Origin: Candidatus Saccharimonadota bacterium
GTDB lineage: Bacteria > Patescibacteriota > Gracilibacteria > BD1-5 > UBA6164
Length of the DNA: 32,000 nt
Direction of reading: 5' to 3'
NCBI GenBank assembly: GCA_965227835.1
Contig: OZ245768.1
Span: 810,001 to 842,000, forward strand
Under the pieces are notes generated by a model. That model saw only the letters and a list, made by a program, of their open reading frames with translations. It searched no databases and was not told where the DNA came from. Both the position numbers and the translations under genes were made by a program. Below are positions 87-32,000 of this stretch, piece after piece; position 1 is the first letter of the stretch, and every line of letters begins with the position of its first letter.

Positions 87-140
87 ACATATAGTGCACA
101 TAAGTTTATGTGTATTTAGTCTACCAAAAAGGAGTAAATT

Positions 141-506
141 ATGACTATATGTAAAAAAAGCCTAGCTATATCTGTCTTAGTAGCTATTCTATGCCATTTT
201 CTATTCGCTTTACCTATAAGTTCCGAAGCACCAAAATTCTTCATATTTGTACATGATAATATTACAATACCTCTTTGGGTGTGTATAATTGGATGTGGAA
301 TATTATTTGGGATTCCAGAAAAAAAATCTTCCTCAGATAATTTTAAATTGCTTCTGGGATTTATTCTTGGAGGAACCCTTGGATTTATTCTTGGAGGAAC
401 CCTTGGATTTATTCTTGGAGGACCCCTTGGATTTATTCTTGGAGGAACCCTTGGATTTGTTCTTGGATTTATTCTTGGATGGTCTCTAGGAGAAAAATTT
501 AATTAA
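141..506 (+). CDS. small secreted/membrane protein with a C-terminal glycine-zipper repeat (LGFILGGT x4)
   Basis: Intact ORF with SD and promoter, TAA stop and a downstream hairpin terminator. The N-terminus is hydrophobic and signal-like. The C-terminus is a GxxxG-type repeat. No in-frame TGA despite more than 20 Gly codons. Confidence 0.75.
   Translation: MTICKKSLAISVLVAILCHFLFALPISSEAPKFFIFVHDNITIPLWVCIIGCGILFGIPEKKSSSDNFKLLLGFILGGTLGFILGGTLGFILGGPLGFILGGTLGFVLGFILGWSLGEKFN
357..452 (+). repeat. 4 x 24-bp in-frame tandem repeat (ggatttattcttggaggaaccctt), degenerating up to about 482
   Basis: Units read directly at 357-380, 381-404, 405-428 and 429-452, with one substitution. Each encodes GFILGGTL. 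Confidence 0.9.
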
Positions 507-1538: not shown

Positions 1539-4500
1539 ATGTTCCCAAAAGTAGACCCAAAACAATCTTTTCCAGAACTTGAAGAAGAAATATTGAAATT
1601 CTGGAAAAAAGAAAACATATTTGAAGAATCTATAGAAACTAGATCAAAAGATAATCCATATAGATTTTATGATTGACCTCCTTTCATAACAGGTACACCT
1701 CATTATTGAAGTCTTTTATCAAGTATATGCAAAGATGTAGTACCAAGATATTGGACTATGCAAGGTAAAAGATGTGAAAGAGTATGGGGATGGGATTGTC
1801 ACTGATTACCTATAGAAGAAAAAGTACAAAAAAAACTATGACTAGAATCAAACAAAGATATAGAAAAAGTATGAGTAGAAAAGTTTATACAAGAATGTTA
1901 TAGCTATACCAAAAATACATCAGCAGAATGGGAATGGTATGTGGATCATATTTGAAGATGGGTTGATTTCAAAAACTCATATAAAACAATGGATCAAGAT
2001 TATATGGAATCAGTAATATGGGTATTTAAAAAATTATGGGAAAAATGATTGGTATACAAAGGACAAAGAGTTTCTCTTTATAGTTGGAAACTATGAACTC
2101 CTATATCAAATTTCGAAGTAGCAATGGATGATTCTTATGAAGAAGTATCAGATCCAGCTATAACAGTTATGTTTCCTATAATTTGAAAGTCTGAAGAAGA
2201 AGAAAATGAAACCTCACCCCTAGCCCCTCTCCTTAGAGGAGAGGAGTTAGGTTGAGGTTTACCCGAAAACAGATGAATCAATCCTTGAGATTACCTAATA
2301 GCTTGGACTACAACACCATGGACAATACCAGCTCATATGGCATTGGCAGTAAACAAAGATTTGGAGTATTCCAAGGTTTTTTGTGATTGAAAATATTATA
2401 TATTAGCAACTCAAAGAATAGAGAGTGTATTTAAATGAAAAAACTATGAATTGATAGATTCTTTTATGTGAGAAAAATTAGTATGATTGAAATATCTACC
2501 TCCATTTGATTATTACTACAAAAACGAGAAATTAAAAAATGATGAAGAGTCTAAAAACTTCTTGGTTTATCATGCAGAATTTGTAACAGACAAAGACTGA
2601 ACATGAATAGCTCACGAAGCACCAGAATTTTGAGATGTAGATTTCTTGTTAGCCAAAGAAAAATGAGTACATATATCAAATGCAATAGATAATGAATGAA
2701 AATATACAGAAGAGATAGAAGACTATCAGTGAATACATTATAAAGAGGCAAACGAAATAATACCTGAAAAACTAAAAGAATTATGACTTCTTTTTAAAAA
2801 AGAAAGTATAAACCATAGAGTAGCTATGTGTCCTAGAAGCTGAACACCTCTAATATACAAAGTTCAAGATTCATGGTTTGTAGATATACAAAAACTAAAA
2901 GAAAAATTAATAAAAGAAAATGAGGGAATTTCTTGGTACCCAGAACATTTAAAACACTGACAATTTTTGAAATCAATGCAGGGAGCTCCTGATTGGTGTA
3001 TAAGCAGGACAAGATATTGGTGAACTCCTATGCCTATATGGATGGGTTACGATGAAAAGTGAAATGAAAAAGATATGAAAGTTTTTTGAAGTAAAAACGA
3101 AATATTTAAAGCAAGCAAAAAAAGTGGGATAATAAATAAATTTTTACTTATAAGGCACAGAGAGGCTATAAAAAATGTAGAAAGAGTAGAAGACTGGAGC
3201 TGAGATGAGAGACTGAATAAACTTACAGATAACTGAGAAAAACAAGCTTTTGATTTATGCAAAGAACTTTTGGAAAAAGAAGATATAGATGTAATTATAT
3301 CTTCTCCACTTGGTAGATGTAAAGATACTATGAAACCATATTTGGAGAAAACAAAAAAAGAAATTATTTTTGATGATAGACTCAAAGAAACTAATCCTTG
3401 AATTTTGGATGGTAAACCATACAAAGTAATAAATACCACCCATTGGGATAAACCTTTTGAAAAATGAGCTGAAACTGGAGAAGAAGTCTATGAAAGAGTA
3501 AAAAATCTTGTGGAAGAAATTAATAAAAAATATAAATGAAAAACTATTGCTTTGGTATCTCATTGATACCCTATAATTTGGTTAAATAAAGTATTTTCAG
3601 ATTTTGATCATAAAAATGAGGATGAAATAGAAAAAGTCTTCCCAGGCCAAGAATGATACCAAAATGTATATGTTTTTACAGACAATTCAAAAGCTATAAA
3701 TTTACATAAACCTTATGTAGATGATATAGTTTGGAAAGAAAATGGATTAACTTATAAAAGAATTCCTGAAGTTTTAGATGTATGGATGGATTCTTGAAGT
3801 ATGCCTTATGCAGGAGTTCATTATCCTTTTAAAATGAAGGATCAGACAGAGTACCAATCAGAAGAAAAAGAAAGAAGTCAAGCAAGGGGTCAATCAGAGG
3901 AAGAAAAAAATCAAGTAAGAGACCAAGCAAGGGGTCAAGACCCCTTGTCTAATGTGAATTGTTCATATAAATTAGAGTCTTCATCATTATTCAACAGCAA
4001 AAAAAAATTAACTTTTTTCGTAACAACGGTCACGCATAACTCACGAATCTCTGAAAGAATTAAGGGTAAAAAAATAAAAATTTGAGAACCTTTAGTATTG
4101 GATGACAAGCAACAGTATGAACTTACAAAGATATTTTTTAATATCAAATTTGAAAAAGATATTCATATATCTCAATATATAATAAATAAAGATCGTATAC
4201 ATTTCATTATCCATGTAGATAGCGAAGAAGAACTTACAAATTCGGTAAAAACATTAAAAAGTTTATCTACAAAGAAATTCAAAGAATTTTTATGAGTTGA
4301 AAATCAAGAACATTTTTCTTTATGGGCACAAAAATTTAATAGAAAGCAAATAAAGGATGAAAAATCATATAAAGATATATCTGAATATATAATAAACAAC
4401 AGAAAAAAACACGGTGAAAGTAGTAAAGAATTCGAACAGAAGTTGAGAAAACTCATAGACAAGGGGTCTTGACCCCTTGAACAACCCTGACCCCTTGAAC

Positions 4501-6572
4501 AATCTAAAAGTTTTAACAACAACAATAACATTGAATTAAAAGGACTTACATACCCTGCTGATTTCATAGTAGAATATATTTGACAAGTAAGAGCCTGGTT
4601 TTATGTAATGCATGTTGTGTGAGTAGCATTATTTGATAAAAGAAGTTTTACAAATGTCATTACAACTTGAATAGTAAATGGATCAGATTGAAGAAAAATG
4701 TCTAAATCATATTGAAATTATCCAGATCCAAAATGAACAATACAAAAATATTGAGCAGATGCTATAAGGTTTTATATGATAAACTCTCCCCTTATGCATT
4801 GAGCAAATATGAGTTTCAAAGAACAATGAGTACAAGAAGTTGTAAAAAAAGTAATCTTACCTCTATGGAACACATATAGTTTTTTTACAACTTATGCAAA
4901 TATAGATAAGTTTGAACCAAAGAAATGAAATATTTACTATTGTAGACACTGAGAAACTGAAAATAATGAAAAAATGATAATGAACTGATGAGATGCAGAA
5001 TCAGAATTAACACAAAAAGGTATAAAACAAGCAAAAAAAGCATGAGAAAAATTTAAACTAACTTGAGTAAAACTGGATAAAATAATAAGCTCTCCAAAAA
5101 AAAGAGCAATAGATACAGCAGAATTGATAAAAAAGCAATTAGGGTATGAAGTAGAAATAGAAGTAAATGAGAATCTAAACGAACAATTATCATGAGAATT
5201 TTTATGATTGTCCTTAGATGAAATAGCAAAAAAACTATGAATAGATATAAGGGATAAATATTTGTTGAGAAAAAGATATAAAGACAAAAAATATAATAAA
5301 ATAGAGGATATATCTGATTTTGATGAAAAAGTAGCTAAAGAATTTGAAAAAATTAAAAATACCTACAAAGATAAAAACATTTTAATAGTATCTCATTCAG
5401 GAACTTTTAGACCAATAAATAGAGTTTTATCTTGATTGAGTATAAAGGAGGCACACTATATTTGTCATTCTTCTCCTAATTCAAAAATAATAAAACTTCC
5501 GAATGAAAAAAGAGAAAACCTACTTGATAAATGGGTAATATCAGAAACAAATAAGTTGATAAAAGATGTGGAGAAAGCTATGGAAAGCTATAAACTAAAC
5601 GAAGCAACAAGACCAATAGCAAAATTTATGGATAAACTTACAAACTGGTATATAAGAAGAAGCAGAAAAAGGTTTTGGAAATCTGAAAATGATATAGATA
5701 AAATACAAGCTTATGAAACTCTACATGAAGTACTTGTAGAACTGACTAAAGTAATAGCTCCTTTTATGCCTTTTATAAGTGAGCATATATATAAAAACTT
5801 AACCGGTAATAAATCACTACATTTAGATAGTTTTCCTAATCCTGTGGATAGTTTCATATTGGAAAACTTAAATCAAGATATGGATATGTGTCAAAAGATA
5901 ATAAATTTATGACTAGCATGGAGGCAAAATCACTCAATAAGAGTTAGACAACCATTATCAAACATAAGTATATGAGAAAAACTAGATGATTATTATATAG
6001 AGATAATAAAAGAGGAACTAAATGTAAAAGAAGTGATAATATTAGAACCAAGTAAGATAGCTAAAAAAATCTGTAAACCAAATGGTAGAATTATATGACC
6101 AAAGTTTGGTAAAGATGTAAAGTTTATAATACAAGAAGCAAAAGCTGGTAGGTTTATGGAAATAGACGAAAATAGTGTGAAAGTTTGAGATTTTGTTTTA
6201 GAGTGAGAAGAATTTGAAATAGCTTTTGAACCATGAGAAACAGAATATGAGATAGAATCATGATTTGGAATGGTAATAGCTATGGACTGAAATATAACAA
6301 AAGATTTGAAACAAGAATGATATGCTCGTGATATAGTCAGGTATATTCAAGAAGCTAGAAAAGAAGCATTATATGAAGTGAGTGATAGAATAAGTATAGA
6401 ACTAAATACTTCAGAAGAAGATTTGAAAAAGGCAATAAAAAATTTTTGAGATTATATAGAAAAAGAAACCTTATCTAAAATAAAAAATAATCTAGAAAAT
6501 CCTGACTTAGAAAAGAAATTTGAAATAGATAACAATAAGTTTGGCATAAAAATAAAAATTGACAATAAATAA
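1539..6572 (+). CDS. ileS: isoleucyl-tRNA synthetase, type 2 (eukaryote-like), 1677 codons with three large in-frame insertions
   Basis: One TAA/TAG-free frame runs from ATG 1539 to TAA 6570-6572. Motifs seen: [15 protein letters not shown] (HYG 1701-1709, G=TGA), WTTTPWT, [17 protein letters not shown], [18 protein letters not shown], [17 protein letters not shown], KMSKS (4695-4709), YgADAIRFY, and the anticodon-binding [15 protein letters not shown]-track pieces 3801..4085, 4098..4295 and 5436..5912 are in-frame fragments of it. Confidence 0.9.
2210..2259 (+). repeat. 50-bp GC-rich imperfect palindrome inserted in frame in the ileS editing-domain loop
   Basis: aacctca-cccctagc-ccctctcc-ttaga-ggagagg-agttagg-ttgaggtt. 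The outer arms (aacctca/tgaggtt) and inner arms (cctctcc/ggagagg) pair. GC is much higher than the surroundings. It encodes [17 protein letters not shown] just before the WTTTPWT motif. Confidence 0.7.
3132..3683 (+). other. histidine-phosphatase (PGAM/CobC-like, branch 1) domain inserted in ileS, copy 1
   Basis: FLLIRHREA (RHG-type motif with R-H), LTDNg[17 protein letters not shown] (SP..R motif), DDRLKE, ALVSHg (catalytic His). It sits between WgTPMPIW and LHKPYVDD...DVWMDSgS, where canonical IleRS has only a short linker. Confidence 0.7.
3878..4502 (+). mobile_element. REPtron-like unit in frame within ileS: a RayT/IS200-like Y1 (HUH-type) transposase-like domain flanked by inverted GC-rich hairpin repeats
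   Basis: Left end: caagcaaggggtcaa (3878-3892), then caagcaaggggtcaagaccccttg with the 20-bp palindrome at 3928-3947. Right end: palindrome caaggggtcttgaccccttg (4460-4479), the exact reverse complement of the left one, then a repeated tgaccccttgaacaa (4470-4484 and 4488-4502). The internal peptide [12 protein letters not shown]...DRIHFIIHV...[12 protein letters not shown]...[12 protein letters not shown]...[16 protein letters not shown] parallels RayT motifs (WFFTV, HxH..., W.prFw...I, Y..YI..NPvKHG). Confidence 0.6.
4929..5498 (+). other. histidine-phosphatase (PGAM/CobC-like) domain inserted in ileS, copy 2
   Basis: IYYCRHgETENN (RHGE), [37 protein letters not shown]. It is inserted between the [13 protein letters not shown] helix and the [11 protein letters not shown] anticodon-binding region. 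Confidence 0.7.
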
Positions 6573-24537: not shown

Positions 24538-24842
24538 AACATGAAGTAAAGTTACATAAAGATAACATTTATAATAATAATTTTAACATAAATGTCAAAT
24601 TTATTTTTAAAATTCACACATAGAGTGTATAATACATAATGTGCATAGATGGAGATATCCAATGAATAAATTTATTCTAATAGTGTTAGATATCTTTTAT
24701 TGATGAAATTATGAATTTAAATCCTATTGATGCTGCATAATATCTTATAGTTATGGGCTAATACCAAAAATGTTGCTCAAATTTGCATTATTAAAATATA
24801 TATGATTTAATTATTATAACTTTATATTTTAATTTAAATTAT

Positions 24843-25640
24843 ATGCCTCTAAATGAAAATTTTAACATTATTGAAAACAAAAAGAATTTACTACAAGACA
24901 ATATTTATTTTGGTAATGCTAGAGATTCTTTAATCGAAGGAAGAAGTGATTTATCAAAAGATGAAATTGATGAAATTATGAATATGAATCCTATTAATGC
25001 TACAGAATATCTTAGAAGCATGAATGCTAGAGATTCCTTGATAGAAGGAAGAAATGACCTGTCAAAAGATGAAATTGATGAAATTATGAATATGAATCCT
25101 ATTAATGCTACAGAATATCTTAGAAGTATGAATGCTAGAGATTCCTTGATAGAAGGAAGAAATGACCTGTCAAAAGATGAAATTGATGAAATTATAAATA
25201 TGAATCCTATTAATGCTGCAGAATATCTTAGAAGCATGAATGTTAGAGATTCTTTAATCGAAGGAAGAAATGATCTGTCAAAAGATGAAATTGATGAAAT
25301 TATGAATTTACATCCAAGAGAAGCTATTGAAGAATTACTTGGAGAATATTACATAGTTCAGCCTTGAGATTCTTTATGGAAAATAGTAAAAAAAAGATTA
25401 TGAAAATCAGATATTTCTGATTCGGAAATTGTTAAAGAAATAAATTTTTTAGTACACTTAAATCCACATTTAAACATAGATACTCTTAGAGTTGTTAATT
25501 GAGTATTAGAAAATTGAAAAGACTGAATACCTTGAGATTTAATTTTTCCATGAGATAAAATTAAACTAACTTGAACTTCAGATGATATAAAATCATATTC
25601 TAATCATCAATTAAATAATTTAAGAAATGAAATTAAATAG
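24843..25640 (+). CDS. LysM-domain protein with four N-terminal 36-aa tandem repeats
   Basis: The track ORF 24843..25367 continues through TGA: YIVQPgDSLWKIVKKRLg...IVKEINFLVHLNP is a LysM signature (Y.V..GD(S/T)LW.IA). TAG stop at 25638-25640. Confidence 0.75.
24915..25340 (+). repeat. about 3.9 x 108-bp in-frame tandem repeat (NARDSLIEGRNDLSKDEIDEIMNMNPINATEYLRSM)
   Basis: Units at 24915-25022, 25023-25130 and 25131-25238, with a diverged unit from 25239 on. The inner two units are nearly identical. The outer two share the tctttaatcgaagg variant. Confidence 0.9.
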
Positions 25641-25649
25641 TATTATCCT

Positions 25650-28600
25650 CTACCTAATAACATAAGAAGTATCTAGTCTAAAAAGAAGCTCTCAAATAAC
25701 TTCGCTAGAATTACTATCTGCAATTTCTAAAAGAATATAGTCTCAATAACTAGAATAATTGATATTATAATCACTAGAATTTGGTATAGATATCCTAGAA
25801 TCTTTTAGTATAGAAAATACAGGTTTTTTCAAAGAATCTGTTTTTTTATAAATAGCCAAACTTCACGGATTATATTCTACAATATCTGGAAGTTTATAAT
25901 AATCAAAACTATCCGAAACAAACTTGAAATATAATCAAGAAGTTGTTATATCATCAAAATCATCTATTACAGCTATATTGCTATCTGTTTCTCAAAACTT
26001 TAATTCTTGAGAAAATACAGGATTCCCAGATAAATCAGAAACTATAAATTCTAAGAAACTATCTTCATTTATAGAAACATCTACACTATAGGAAGGATCA
26101 GAAATAATTATTTTTCAAGTATTTTCATTTATACTAAAAGCTAAATTGTCTTCTACACTAACATCAACTAAATTACTAACCTCATTATTTAAACTAAAAT
26201 CAAAATCTCAAGAATAAGTATCCACTTTTGTAGTACCACTTGAAGTTTCAAGTCTTTTAATCACTCATCATCTAAATCTATATAAATTTATAGGCTCTCA
26301 AGATAAAGACTCATTTATAAATCAAGAAACTTCAGAACCAGAATAAGAAGATATTTCCGGTATAGGAGTATATACCTCAAAATCTATATCTTTAGAATTA
26401 GTATTTCAATTTAAATCTGTGATAACAAATTTAATCTTTTTACTAAATATATCTTCAAATTCACCAAAATTAACTCTCAAACTATTTTCAGTTTTTCTAA
26501 CTTCATATTTATCCTCATCAATTCATTCTATAACAAAACTAGATATATTAGAAATTCCAGTATCCTCATATACATTATCGGTTAAATCAACAAGTTTTTG
26601 TGAATAAACAGGTACTTTAATTTTACTATTAATATCTATTTCAGGAGCATATTTATCGGCAGCTTTTTGTGGAGAAAGAAGAACTCAAAGTGTTTTTGTA
26701 GAGAATACATTTTGTTTGAATCATGAAAGCCTAGAATAGAAATAATCATTTTGTGTATCTAGGTTTATAGAATATCTATCAGATTTTAATCCTAAATCAT
26801 ACAAAATATAAGATTTTATCTTTCTAAAATCAAGCCTTGATTCACTATCATCATAATATCTTATTCAAATATTACTTGATGTGGAAGTATCAAAAGAAGA
26901 GTTTATTTTTATTTCTGAACCAAAAAATATAGGTTTACCTAAATGACTATTAATTTCATTTCATTCTAATGTAATATCATCCAAAGCAGGGACATAAGCA
27001 TCTCAGGAAATTCAAATAACTTTTATATAATTATCAAACTCTATATTTGTGTGAGCTTCTATTTTTAAGTTATTTGAAACTTGTGAATCTCAAACTAGAT
27101 AGGTAATTTCAGTAGAATTATCTCAAGCATATATCCTAGTAGAAGCAGGTATATTAGCTATAGAAAGTTCACTTATACTATCCTTTATATTTTGAAGTCT
27201 TTTAGTTTTTAATCTAACTCAAGGTATATTATCTCAAACACTGTAAACATATGCCAAGTTTTTTCTTTTTACAATTCATCAAGTATTATAAATAGTAGAG
27301 TTATCATCACTAGAAACAAAAGAATCTACTATGCTAAGTTTTATATCCCCAGGTATATATCAAGGATTATCTTCATTTAAATATTTGTCTATTCTATCAT
27401 AGTATTCAAGTCTATAGTTAGAAATCTCATTATTTCTCAAAGCTGAAAAACCTAAATTTAGAAAACTATCTGAAACTACACTCTCCCTTACATTATTTGG
27501 ACTTTCATAAAAAATATCTCCGTTTAAAAATCTATTTGAATCAGAATCAAGTATTAAAACATCAGAATAATAAATTCAATCTTCTGATTCTGTTAAATTT
27601 TCTTTTAAATATAAATCCTCTTCAACAGAGTATAGAATGTCTAAATCAGAATCTAGATCAATGTCTATAGATGTAATAGTTTCATCTCCACTTAATTCAT
27701 CTAAATAATCAAATAATTTGTAGTTTATTTTTGTGTCTCATTCTTCCTGTATTACATAAATTCATTCATATTTTCTCTGATAACTAGAATTTTTTGCCTG
27801 ACAGCTACCTCCACTAGAACCTGATGAGTTTAGAGATGCTAGATATTTACCTGTATCTGATGAAGCTAAATAGTTATTTTCATTTTTAGCATTTTTAATA
27901 CTTCTATAACTTCTTTTTGAATAATTATTTGTATTTGAGGATGCACTTAAATCATTTTCATATATAAGACCGGCATTATTTTTGAAATCTCTAATTATAT
28001 ATTCTCAATCTTCTTTTAGTTTCTTGCTATCCATATATTTAGGATTTACTAAAGACTTAGCTCTATTTTTAAAGTTATCGCTGTATTTATCAAAAGCTGA
28101 ATTATAAGCTTCTATATGGTTAAAATTATCATTTGATATCATTTTATATGAAGACTCTTTTTTTATTTCTTTCAAATCATTTTTCATCTCATCTGTTTTT
28201 TTTATTTCTTTTTTTATTATAGATTTAAGTATTTCAAATTTTTCTAGGTTTTCTTGTTTTAAATCTCTTATAATTTTGTCTTCCTTTGAATAAGTATATC
28301 TATTAACAGTATCAAAAGTATTTCTAAACTCTCTAAATCTAGGATCTTTTATTATACTATCTTTTACTAATTCTTGGTTTATAAGAGATAGTAAAGATGC
28401 ACTCGTTAAAGTATCTTTTGAATTTGTGTCTATATATTTGGTTAAAATATTAAATCATTTAGAAACATAGTTTGCAAAAAGCTCTCACAAAATAAGAGAA
28501 GTTTCTCCTCAGTTTCAAAGTTCTATATTTGCATCTTTTCATTCAACTGAACCAAAAGGTTCCATATCAGGAAGTTTAAAATTTAGTGCATTGGTAAAAT

Positions 28601-31600
28601 TATTTGTAAAAACATTTATAGGATCAGCTATACGTGTTTTAGCCATTTCAACTAAAAACTCTGTTTCAAACTCCAAATTAACAAAAGTTTTTACTTGTAT
28701 TTCATCTACAAAAGGATAAGAAAATTGAGGTAAGTTAAAATCTAAGAAATCGGGAGTTCTAAATCATCCTCCCTCTGTTAAAAATGCGATTAAATCTCAA
28801 GCTCTCCACTCTGGAACAAAAGGAGATTTTTTTACTATACACATTATTTTTACTATAAGTTTGAAAATATTTAGTACTCATTCAAGTTCAGCAAAAAGTT
28901 TAGGTAGTTTTGGGGCAGGAGGTAAATCCGGAAGTCTTACAGTAGGCAAGTTTGGTAAATCAGGTAGAGTTGGAATATCAATACTAGGAAGTACTTCAAG
29001 TTCTGGAATTACTATATTTACACTTGGTGCTGAAGGTAAATTAAGTTCAGGTAGAGGAGGGAGAATAATAGGTCTTTGATTAAAATCAAACTCTGGCAAT
29101 ACTATATTTAAGTTTAGTCTAATACTATGTAAATCTAAAACTATATCTGGCCATTTAGGAAATTGGATTACAGGTATTTTTGGTATAAGGAAACTAATTA
29201 ACTGCATTATAAATGTCATGAGATCTGATCTTTCGTTTTTACATTCATGACACTGAGCTTCAAAATCAAAGAATATATCAGCCAAAAGTTGCCAAGATTT
29301 TAATATAGCTTTTATTAAAATATAGAGTTCAACCCAAGTTCTGAATATCTTACCGTTTCTAGATAACCATCATCATGTAATTTCTTGGATATTATCTATA
29401 TTACAAAGTACCTGTTCTAGGTAATCTTGTTTTTTGTTTGCAAGCCTAGCAAGTTTTTGAGGAATTTCTCCATATGAATCTATAACCTGTATATTTTTTT
29501 CTACACTTGAAACAAATCTGTTTGCATCCAAAAGTATCTTTTGGGATAAAGCATTTTCTTCAAGACATTCTTCTTTTTCTTGAGGATCTGTTTTTTCATC
29601 ACAAGAAAGTCATAAAGTCCGGCTTGCAACTGCTTGTTCTATTTCTTCTTTATATCATTCTAGGGAGTTTTGCCATAATAATTTAGTAGATTCCAAGGTT
29701 TTTTTGTCTATCCATGGTATATTTATATTTATAGGTTCTCAACTAATTGATACAAAAGGAACTCTTCATAGAAAATCATATACTTCTTTTATACCCGAAG
29801 TTTGTTTTTCTACACTTGTAGCAGTGTTATTTATAAAATCTCATCATACAAGATTAGTATTTCCAGGAGAAGAGCTGTTATAAGCATCTTGTTGTCATGA
29901 TTCTAAATCTTTAAAATATTCTCACCAATCAGCACCTTGTATGCTTGAAAAATCAGGTAGTATCACAAAAAGTGTAGGAAAATCTGTAAGTTTGGTAATT
30001 ATTTCTTCAAGCTGTGCTGTAACCCAGTCTGTTATAAAACTAGGAAACCCTGCGACTCTACTTTGAGAAATCTCATTTACACTACCAAGACTAAATCCAT
30101 CTTCTGAAAAATCCAAAGAAAGACTAATATCTGATTCATCTCAAGTTCATCAATTTACAGAAATAATAGAGTTATCATTTTGTATATCATAGTTATTATA
30201 GCTACCAGGTTTGGCAGGATCCTCAAAGGCATTTTTAAAAGCATCTTTTAGATTATCAGAAACTTTTCAATTTTTTCTATATTCTAGGTAATATCTAGCA
30301 AGTCCTGTATTTATCATATTGGAAGATGGAAGTTTTTGATGTCAGCTACTTTGAATACTTGTTCATCATCCACTATTTCATCATCAACCACCACAACTTC
30401 AATTTACTACTCAAAATGATGATCATCAATAGGTTCCTCATCAGTAATAGTTTACTTGTCAAATACTTCAAGGATTTCAATTTATTTCTTCATCTTTACA
30501 TAAATTTGGCATAGGAGCAGCAGCAACTATACAATTTCAACCTGGAATAGCAGGACTAGCTCAAGGTGGTGGAAGATTTCAAACAACAGAAGCTGGTCAA
30601 CCAAAACAAGCAGCAACTCAAACTCAACCAGTAAGAGTTGGTGTTACATATAGCCTAAAAACATTTGTGGGAGAATTTGCTCAAAGCATTCATCATGCTC
30701 ACATAGAAGTATTACAAGATCATCTAAAAGCAAAAGGAGAAATAGGCCATATCATAGGTACTTGAAAACATCACCAAGGACCGGGAACATTAAATCAAGT
30801 TAATCATGATATAATTGGTATACCTTCATTTACTTTTAATCAGTCTCAAATAGGAAATCAAAAAAGTGTAGGGTCTCATCCAGGAGCAAGTGGTGCCCAG
30901 TTAAGTGGAGAAGCAAAACAATTTCATCAACCAAATCAGCATCAAAATCATTGTATTAGGTTATCTAAATCAGCTGATACAGAATCAACTTTGCTATTTA
31001 TTTTACCAATCATATCAAATATATCATCATCAGCATTTATCTTTCTAGAATCACTATAATCTTTTAAAGCTTCCTGAGCATATTCAGTTAGAGCATTATT
31101 ATTGGTTTCGTATGAATCATCTAAGATTAAATCATCTGAATCATCATTTAGCTCATCTATATAATCAGGAATTCAATTATTGTTAGTATCAACATCATTT
31201 CTAGCAAGTTCTTCTGGAATTGGTGAGTTATCACAGCTTTGGGTTTGAGCTCATTTTTGGTATGATTTTTGAGAATTTGATCTAAATATTTCTCATTCTC
31301 AACCACAACTATTATTGCTACTGCTGACTCTAACATCTCAAAACGAATCATCTCAAGCTTCATCTTTTTCAAAAAGTCCAACCTCTATAGAACCAAAATT
31401 AAGTGCTTTAGTTGATACTCTATAAGTAATATTTATCTCTTCTTGGGGGTTTAAGCTAAATTTGTCCACCATAAATTTATATTTTCAAATACCTGGTCTT
31501 ATGATTAAATCATCTCTATCTTTTTTGATAGAATCAAAATCAATTTCAAAAAACTCCATTGTATCTTCCAAATATACTATATCTCTAATAACTTGTGTAT

Positions 31601-32000
31601 TTGTATTGTTTTTCAGGGTAACATTTATTTCAACTATATCTTTGTATTTAAGATTTCATCAATTTAGGTCTGTAAAAGTTTTTAATACATCTATTCAAAT
31701 TTGAGAAGCAAACTCACTTTTTATAAAATCTGTTTGCTTGGTATGATTTTCTTTTGTGGGGTCTATATCGGGATCATATGCTAGTTTTTCAAACATCAAT
31801 CTTTCAAGCATATTTACTGGTACTTCTGGAACTTCATCACTACTAGGTTCTTTTTTATCATCTATTCACCTAAAATAAAGAGCTCACATTTCATTTGTAG
31901 AATTTCAACTAAGGCTTATACCATATCAAGAATTTATGGTATTTTTTTCAAAATCTAGGCTTCAAGATTTTCAGTAAAAAATGTTTAAATCTCAGTTAGA
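25650..32000 (-). CDS. giant surface/secreted-type protein, 3' part only (more than 2116 codons in window; start lies beyond 32000)
   Basis: The minus-strand frame with codon ends equal to 2 mod 3 has no TAA/TAG from 32000 down to TAG 25650-25652. It joins track fragments 29922..30116, 28878..29285 and 28005..28187 through many TGA codons. It contains a Gly/Cys/Pro-rich hydrophobic block and an LP-rich block. No family recognised. Confidence 0.8.

Follow-up and report, generated by a model that had tools for sequence, protein, structure and literature searches.

A REPtron-like cassette probably captured in a loop of isoleucyl-tRNA synthetase and translated through in a code-25 bacterium

How can an essential aminoacyl-tRNA synthetase gene carry, in the middle of its reading frame, a transposase-type domain bounded by inverted DNA hairpins, and what has become of this domain? 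The question is raised by ileS, the gene of a type-2 isoleucyl-tRNA synthetase (IleRS), in a stretch of 32,000 nucleotides of contig OZ245768.1 from a Candidatus Saccharimonadota bacterium, referred to below as the window. An earlier reading of this DNA (the original prediction) had described in ileS a RayT/IS200-type Y1 transposase placed in frame between inverted GC-rich hairpins. This description holds: the domain matches Pfam Y1_Tnp (PF01797) with 35.7 bits, it lies between the arms of a 24-nt inverted repeat, and the whole is contained in a single open reading frame (ORF) under genetic code 25. Comparison at the level of sequence shows that the insertion is lineage-specific, that it is stop-free only under code 25, and that its Y1 subfamily co-occurs with the same palindrome elsewhere. 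The ileS insert is probably a cassette resembling a REPtron, that is, a gene for a REP-associated tyrosine transposase (RAYT) flanked by inverted repetitive extragenic palindromes (REPs), which was captured in a permissive IleRS loop and is now an immobilised, translated-through domain.

The window has a GC content of 26% and, when read with translation table 11, appears as a mosaic of short ORFs with fragmented genes. When TGA is treated as a sense codon, stop-free stretches of at least 150 codons rise from 1,747 to 11,938 residues over the 32 kb. Universally conserved glycines of IleRS (DS-G-S and D-G-RKMSKSY-G-N) are encoded by TGA, which indicates code 25 of the Gracilibacteria/SR1 type and not code 4. 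The product of ileS read in this way matches the Pfam families tRNA-synt_1 (E-value of 7.5e-119) and Anticodon_1, as well as DUF5915 at the C-terminus. Its HIGH-type (PHYGS) and KMSKS motifs are intact, the KMSKS and DSGS motifs being read with TGA as glycine. Outside the insert the gene is intact, and the level of identity to the IleRS of two relatives, L001 and L003, is 72-73%.

Relatives were taken from a scan of one genome per species, which yielded L001 (CP060226.1), L002, and L003, with 69-73% identity in the best aligned segment. The empty-site check that had been proposed for related ileS genes gave the same result in all three: the sequence HYPF-ENK(A/Q)(P/A)ME(E/A/S)S-(Y/F)PADFIVEY, with nine codons between HYPF and YPADF. 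The site of insertion, predicted between HYPF and PADFI, is thus correct, and the sizes need small adjustments, from about 236 to 240 codons for the insert and from about 10 to 9 residues for the loop of the relatives. Strain variants of ileS were also sought via neighbouring genes; two ORFs had no match, and the third led to a 7.7-kb contig far from ileS.

The insert contains no TAA or TAG and no second ORF; as had been noted, it has been kept translatable, given the code-25 reading. Among its four in-frame TGA codons, one lies in the right hairpin and would be a stop under the standard code; the insert is therefore in frame only for a host that uses code 25. For the core enclosed by the repeat arms (3952-4455), the GC is 0.25 and the GC at third codon positions (GC3) is 0.21, the values for ileS being 0.286 and 0.18. 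TGA recoding and the host-like composition together suggest that this copy has long resided in a code-25 genome. At the junctions (HYPF|KMK... and ...KGLT|YPADF) there are no splicing residues, and the insert is consequently expected to stay in the mature protein. An intein was rejected, as the N-terminal Cys/Ser/Thr and the C-terminal His-Asn followed by Cys/Ser/Thr are absent; no intein family of Pfam matches ileS at E <= 1. An Rfam scan of 3500-4900 on both strands had no match at E <= 1, and a group I or II intron, an IStron, and a ribozyme were rejected on this basis. Programmed bypass of GC-rich inserts of the "byp" type is unnecessary, because all ileS inserts are in frame and stop-free. 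An antisense ORF at 3821-4600 (259 codons) is unremarkable, given that about ten antisense ORFs of at least 150 codons are present in the window, one of them with 257 codons.

The two 20-bp palindromes, CAAGGGGTCAAGACCCCTTG at 3928-3947 and CAAGGGGTCTTGACCCCTTG at 4460-4479, are reverse complements of each other as predicted, and the repeat extends to a perfect 24 nt. They are the only two matches in the window with three mismatches allowed, and 100 shuffles of the sequence gave no match. The TCTA/TAGA on the inner side of each hairpin indicates that the two copies are in opposite orientation. Each arm forms a hairpin with a 9-bp stem (folding as single-stranded DNA, ssDNA, of about -8 to -9 kcal/mol, z about -3). 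Perfect hairpins with a stem of at least 8 bp and at least 40% GC number six in the 32 kb, three of them inside ileS. The outer half-copies exist as well, although their extents differ from those first noted (3878-3892 and 4488-4502): they were found at 3883-3893 and 4488-4497, within in-frame tandem duplications with periods of 45 nt and 18 nt.

The match of the domain to PF01797 (E-value of 1.1e-8) exceeds the gathering cut-off of 23 bits. A word-indexed search revealed four stand-alone homologs of 147-189 aa with 40-43% identity, one of which is named RayT by JGI. A hidden Markov model (HMM) built from these four proteins recognises the window copy with 125 bits (E-value of 3.6e-38), and finds no other Y1 domain in the 32-kb window. 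The comparison with Y1_Tnp and RayT-type models that had been suggested is therefore significant. The best NCBIfam match is REP_Tyr_transpos NF047646 with 49.1 bits, below its cut-off of 80, whereas the IS200 TnpA model NF033573 gives 27 bits, below its cut-off of 55. Judged by these scores, the domain is nearest to REP-associated tyrosine transposases and is neither a canonical RAYT nor a canonical IS200 TnpA. Of the REPtron label, the architecture of a Y1 domain with inverted hairpins is retained, but neither the cut-offs of the RAYT and IS200 models nor the GTAG foot of the hairpin is found.

The closest solved structures by profile are the ISDra2 and IS608 TnpA proteins (E-value of about 1e-3). 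In a PDB search with the single sequence, matches to integrin I-domains (E-value of about 0.01) were dismissed as spurious, and 4ER8 appeared at an E-value of 1.3. The AlphaFold model of P0001, a stand-alone homolog with 43% identity (pLDDT of 76), gave 28 Foldseek matches at E <= 0.001, and all 28 are Y1 transposases; 4ER8, the complex of the E. coli TnpA-REP with a REP hairpin, is among them.

As for the catalytic motifs, the second His of the HUH motif had been reported as lost; it is the first His that is missing, the window copy having D-R-I-H where the family has DH[IV]H. This His is 100% conserved in the family alignment, embedded copies included, and is replaced by Arg in the window copy. 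Three residues beside it, conserved in at least 79% of the family, are lost too. In the columns conserved in at least 90% of the family, the window copy keeps 15 of 20 residues, while the family median is 95% and the 5th percentile 80%; it ranks second from the bottom of 78 members. The losses cluster in the catalytic strand AYNICxDHVH. From the loss of the first His and the changes in this strand, the nuclease centre is very probably dead and the fold probably kept. Domestication or decay, which the original prediction had suggested from an apparent loss of the second His, is thus probable, the HUH strand being degraded.

An exhaustive profile search gave 1050 representatives of the subfamily at E <= 1e-3, with the signature THNSR ... 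AYNICxDH[IV]H ... LWxQKF ... Y[IV]xxNRxKH. Embedding in host proteins was counted in the best 150 of these 1050 representatives. There are 59 long proteins among them (338-1273 aa), and 55 of the 59 match the Eco57I methylase family (E <= 1e-5); about 40% of the best 150 are embedded in frame in Eco57I-type methylases, which are restriction-modification enzymes of type IIG. Eight long proteins without the NPPY and DPxCGSG motifs were rescanned: seven match Eco57I at E <= 1e-3, some of them weakly and below the curated cut-off, and the eighth, P0099, has a Y1_Tnp match alone. The usual home of the subfamily is thus the Eco57I-type methylases, and embedding in an ORF can be regarded as a habit of the family that is not unique to ileS. 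Automated JGI names such as "RM methylase subunit / RayT" indicate that annotation pipelines do register this architecture.

In the aligned copies from methylase hosts, EFPxVF and GGFDVVIGNPPY flank the in-frame Y1 domain. Homologs of the host P0020 are about 1180-1320 aa long with the module and about 1010-1090 aa long without it; the identity of their N-terminal flanks is 62-77% in either case, with clean boundaries. A neighbour-joining tree of 106 host N-flanks requires at least 19 changes between presence and absence, compared with a mean of 33.5 and a minimum of 25 for shuffled tips, with the caveat that methylase genes may exchange single domains by recombination. In the ileS insert, the Lys-rich linker that immediately precedes the core is closer to embedded copies than to stand-alone ones.

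Several methylase hosts have been rearranged. In L197 (836-4432, minus strand), L089, and L116, the embedded Y1 domain is circularly permuted, with the Tyr half before the HUH half, and palindromes read as ARGQDPL, ARGLDPL, and TRGQDPL are found at all three junctions. In L110 (2-1033, minus strand), an Eco57I-type gene lacks about 350 residues, S-adenosylmethionine-binding motif I included, and a palindrome copy (TRGHDPL) coincides exactly with the junction of the deletion, with FDWHKEFPQVF and the Y1 domain a short way downstream. In methylase hosts without Y1 (P0153-P0271, relatives of P0020), the spacing from NIKCGNSL to NPPY is 22 or 31 residues, and in a few cases 94 or 101; the last two spacings may have been left behind when the module was deleted incompletely.

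The exact palindrome, CAAGGGGTC-WW-GACCCCTTG, has at least 120 matches in metagenome contigs. Among the matches listed, nearly all contigs are of low GC (24-39%), most of those using the standard code; 106 palindrome copies could be evaluated, with 90 extragenic and 13 inside long ORFs, and the Y1 subfamily adjoins the palindrome in eight contigs. Two contigs of more than 1 Mb, belonging to other organisms, each bear at least two differently flanked copies. In methylase hosts the palindrome is read as (T/A)RG(H/Q)DPL, often in the loop between the HUH and Tyr halves. The ORF of the stand-alone P0001 includes hairpins of this type within each of its two ends, and these form a 36-nt inverted repeat. 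NKGLQPLV, a frequent C-terminal tail in the family, is the translation of a perfect palindrome, AACAAGGGGTTG|CAACCCCTTGTT, and the peptide of the right ileS hairpin, DKGSGPLEQ, aligns with this motif in P0026, the relative that matches best. The feet of the hairpins conform to T-R-R, with TAG on 18 of 186 feet (about tenfold enriched).

The palindrome was also seen in other settings. In L166 (around 1753), L092 (around 5618), and L126 (near 8157) it is in frame as (L)TRGHDPL; the settings are an 818-aa protein that, from its sequence, resembles a fusion of a glycosyltransferase with a membrane and thioredoxin-like region, and a recurrent position in the N-terminal domain of methylase hosts. 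A nearly identical extragenic context, GTTCGATAACCTAAGTTTTTTTATCTATA followed by the palindrome and CTTCAAGATATTTATTTTATTAAATTCTAA, was noted in L081, L083, L088, L090, L094, L119, L143, L144, L150, L158, and others; this could be one conserved locus sampled repeatedly, or a larger repeat.

The ileS insert has the sequence anatomy of a REPtron, with a hairpin, a Y1 domain, an inverted hairpin, and nothing else, and its ends coincide with the hairpins of the family. The rearrangements at REP copies in the methylase hosts L197, L089, L116, and L110 back a REP-associated entry. In the reading that we prefer, a Y1 domain of a RAYT-related subfamily, together with two cognate inverted hairpins, would have been fixed in a variable IleRS loop between HYPF and YPADF, upstream of the KMSKS segment. 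As to its entry, a Y1 enzyme may have cut and joined ssDNA under the direction of the hairpins, or REP copies may have recombined with each other; the donor was possibly a methylase-embedded copy. Since the cell depends on ileS, an insertion there would be survivable only if it was in frame, free of stops, and placed in a permissive loop. The cassette, which has no start or stop of its own, is predicted to be read through in both transcription and translation, adding a domain of about 27 kDa to the enzyme. This domain would be held on flexible charged and Asn-rich linkers, so that IleRS would work without excision or splicing. After the decay of the HUH strand, the module would be unable to leave or to be lost imprecisely, and its DNA cutting would be gone. 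Two constraints presumably explain its persistence: an imprecise loss would disrupt an essential gene, and selection on ileS would remove frame-breaking mutations.

Several observations weigh against this reading. The canonical GTAG foot is not among the common foot tetranucleotides, and the foot in the window is TAGA. Over the 32 kb of the window, neither the palindrome nor the Y1 domain has a further copy. Both hairpins have stayed perfect although they are apparently old, which hints at constraint or conversion at the DNA level. As to the donor, the insert leader resembles the methylase leader with p = 0.008 over its whole length, but with p = 0.18 for the FxWxxEFPxVF part; the spacing is suggestive, but 30 of 1672 IleRS 22-mers score equally, and a carried-over remnant of the methylase FxWxxEFPxVF is not claimed. 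The evidence for a methylase-embedded copy as the source of the cassette is weak. Finally, THNSR, LWAQKF, and YIxxNRxKH are well conserved in the window copy, and the conservation outside the HUH strand could reflect selection for a retained function instead of passive decay.

This last point leads to the alternative that the Y1 domain has been exapted as a catalytically dead module binding hairpins or single-stranded nucleic acids, with a new function on IleRS, for example in tRNA or mRNA binding or in tethering the enzyme to DNA, and is kept by selection on the protein. Most residues of the family signature are strongly conserved despite the long residence, and the same IleRS has accreted two His_Phos_1 domains, which suggests that the lineage tolerates or exploits inserted domains. 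We nevertheless regard exaptation as rather unlikely: the insert is missing in all three nearest relatives, there is no orthologous second copy by which selection could be gauged, and the hairpins have been kept as DNA palindromes, which a function purely at the protein level does not need. Moreover, we know of no function of IleRS, a class Ia synthetase, that needs such a domain.

The perfect state of both hairpins and of the 24-nt arms, in turn, fits a cassette that is still mobile at the ssDNA level and would be excised or copied from one hairpin to the other, either in trans by another, intact Y1 enzyme of the subfamily whose gene lies elsewhere in the genome or by residual activity of its own, with the ileS copy as one of several in-frame copies. 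The intact Tyr motif, the many gains and losses in methylase hosts, and the REP-linked rearrangements fit it too. Continued mobility is unlikely, however, in view of the loss of the first HUH His together with its three well-conserved (at least 79%) neighbours, the lack of a second copy within 32 kb, and a composition and TGA recoding that point to long residence and not to recent arrival. RAYTs, besides, are generally single-copy, non-replicating genes (PMC5581495).

A chimeric assembly at the repeated palindrome, or a pseudogenised ileS, is very improbable: the genome is probably metagenome-derived and palindromic repeats can mislead assemblers, but both junctions lie in the same gene and frame exactly at the loop, the insert has TGA at conserved Gly positions and the GC and GC3 of the host, the remaining ileS is intact, 72-73% identical to its relatives, and keeps its catalytic motifs, and a contig of more than 1 Mb has been recorded with a protein that the window also encodes.

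The captured-cassette reading refers to the parts of ileS that are collected in Table 1.

Table 1. Coordinates of ileS and of the parts of its insert (positions in the window)
Feature	Position	Strand	Remarks
ileS (type-2 IleRS, host gene)	1539-6572	+	1677 codons, single ORF under code 25
Entire lineage-specific insert	3831-4550	+	240 codons, in place of the 9-codon loop ENKAPMEES of relatives
N-side linker	3831-3927	+	Charged, low-complexity; holds the 45-nt tandem duplication and the outer left half-palindrome
Left arm of the inverted repeat	3928-3951		Hairpin CAAGGGGTC-AA-GACCCCTTG and inner TCTA foot; translated ARGQDPLS
Y1 HUH (IS200/RAYT-type) domain	4014-4424	+	In frame with ileS; subfamily HMM, PF01797, NF047646
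In-frame TGA (Gly)	4083-4085	+	Gly at that position in most family members (VKxG)
Degenerate HUH motif R-I-H	4194-4202	+	D-R-I-H; family DH[IV]H
In-frame TGA (Gly)	4293-4295	+	Invariant Gly of LG (five-sequence alignment)
Tyr motif YIINNRKKH, retained	4386-4412	+	Family Y[IV]xxNRxKH; Tyr codon 4386-4388
Right arm of the inverted repeat	4456-4479		TAGA foot and hairpin CAAGGGGTC-TT-GACCCCTTG; translated D-K-G-S-G(TGA)-P-L
In-frame TGA	4470-4472	+	Within the right hairpin
C-side linker	4480-4550	+	18-nt duplication bearing the outer right half-palindrome
In-frame TGA	4488-4490	+	Fourth TGA of the insert

Other features of the same gene can be noted. Two full His_Phos_1 domains lie in frame in IleRS, at about 3120-3693 and 4932-5534 (Pfam, 3.6e-62), with the motifs RHRE...SHG and RHGE...SHS. 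Hairpins were looked for at the junctions of these inserts in ileS and none were found. The second His_Phos_1 insert is common to L001, while L002 and L003 have neither; at the site of the first, L001 has a different insert, which is alpha/beta-hydrolase-like (HSLG). No literature on His_Phos_1 inserts in IleRS was found. A 52-nt imperfect GC-rich hairpin at 2209-2260 is also in frame in ileS (ssDNA folding energy of -16.5 kcal/mol, z of -6.5); it has no counterpart in L001, L002, or L003, is unrelated to the palindrome of the insert, and looks like an intragenic palindrome of the type of REPs or of Rickettsia palindromic elements (RPEs). The C-terminal domains of the L001 and L002 ileS products have small in-frame palindromic peptides of their own, of the HPELDSGS/TDSGSSPEG type, at sites different from those in the window, and a perfect hairpin with an 8-bp stem lies among them in L002 (3947-3967).

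Elsewhere in the window, the ORF at 24795-25640 (plus strand) contains four tandem repeats of about 37 aa (ARDSLIEGRNDLSKDEIDEIMNMNPINATEYLRSMN), and the small ORF at 138-506 (plus strand) is built of GFILGGTL repeats. The ORF at 25650-32000 (minus strand) exceeds 2116 codons and continues past the end of the window.

REPs are usually viewed as extragenic repeats, and the RAYT that serves them as a domesticated gene that stands alone and in single copy. Here, a whole enzyme domain with its hairpins is found within a housekeeping protein that the cell cannot do without, and relatives of the domain occur within hundreds of restriction-modification methylases, where they have been gained or lost repeatedly. 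What sets the ileS case apart is that its host is essential and is not a methylase. We tentatively raise the possibility, more doubtful than the capture itself, that the Y1 subfamily is an undescribed class of "guest-domain" mobile element, bounded by hairpins, without a start or stop of its own, translated within its host, and passing from ORF to ORF at REP hairpins. If this were true, the ileS copy would directly document that the module has jumped from one host gene to an unrelated one, either across a genetic-code boundary or within a code-25 lineage. A translated moving cassette would then join inteins and in-frame palindromic elements as a third mode in which a selfish nuclease can reside within a protein, and it would give the very compact genomes of Patescibacteria a means of adding domains to their proteins. 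A reassigned stop codon (TGA for Gly) alters which insertions a gene can tolerate, and in code-25 genomes inserts of this kind upset gene calling as well as length checks based on orthology.

When comparing the ileS insert with known systems, inteins with homing endonucleases offer one parallel, as they also place a selfish nuclease-type domain in frame in an essential protein and have empty sites in relatives. Unlike them, the ileS insert has no splicing residues, its nuclease belongs to another family, and its DNA signals are hairpins. The TnpA proteins of IS200/IS605 elements (IS608, ISDra2) are the closest solved structures by profile and by the fold modelled for P0001, and are single-domain HUH/Y1 enzymes that recognise hairpins. 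The ileS element differs from these in having no Y---Q motif (it is of the Y-x-x-N-R type) and no tnpB partner; its ends are inverted repeats, which those of IS200/IS605 are not, and it is not an autonomous gene.

The likeness to REPtrons and RAYTs (subclass 2.4 of Quentin et al., which corresponds to RAYT group 4 of Bertels) is closer and comprises a probable Y1 HUH fold, a Tyr motif of the YIxNN type, W-x-Q, and inverted GC-rich hairpins that flank the gene, the same hairpin being, in other organisms, mostly an extragenic repeat as well. In TnpA-REP subclass 2.4, an in-frame REP has been described inside the gene, in the same arrangement as in the methylase hosts (PMC6006769). The differences are in the motifs (DHxH and YIxxNRxKH in the family of the ileS domain, NH[IFV]H and YIxNNP in RAYTs), in the foot (T-R-R versus GTAG), and in the domain having no start or stop of its own and being translated inside a host, IleRS or Eco57I-type methylases. 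Quentin et al. (2018) discarded "unexpectedly long proteins" as gene fusions or annotation errors (PMC6006769). Neither the key RAYT/REP surveys nor full-text searches yielded a description of an entire RAYT-type domain lying within the ORF of a host.

Intragenic REPs and RPEs complete the comparison. In-frame REPs have been published inside RAYT genes and in unrelated genes, those of tRNA synthetases included, and some of the intragenic repeats of Rickettsia, RPE-4 and RPE-6, have been identified as REPs (PMC6006769, PMC3733652). These are GC-rich palindromes in frame in conserved genes, missing from orthologs and tolerated in surface loops. Under the published definition (PMC3733652), the ileS insert belongs with them, being an in-frame palindromic insertion in a conserved gene whose orthologs lack it. 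RPEs and REPs, however, add 7-80 residues of repeat peptide, whereas the hairpin pair in ileS encloses a complete enzyme domain of about 140 residues.

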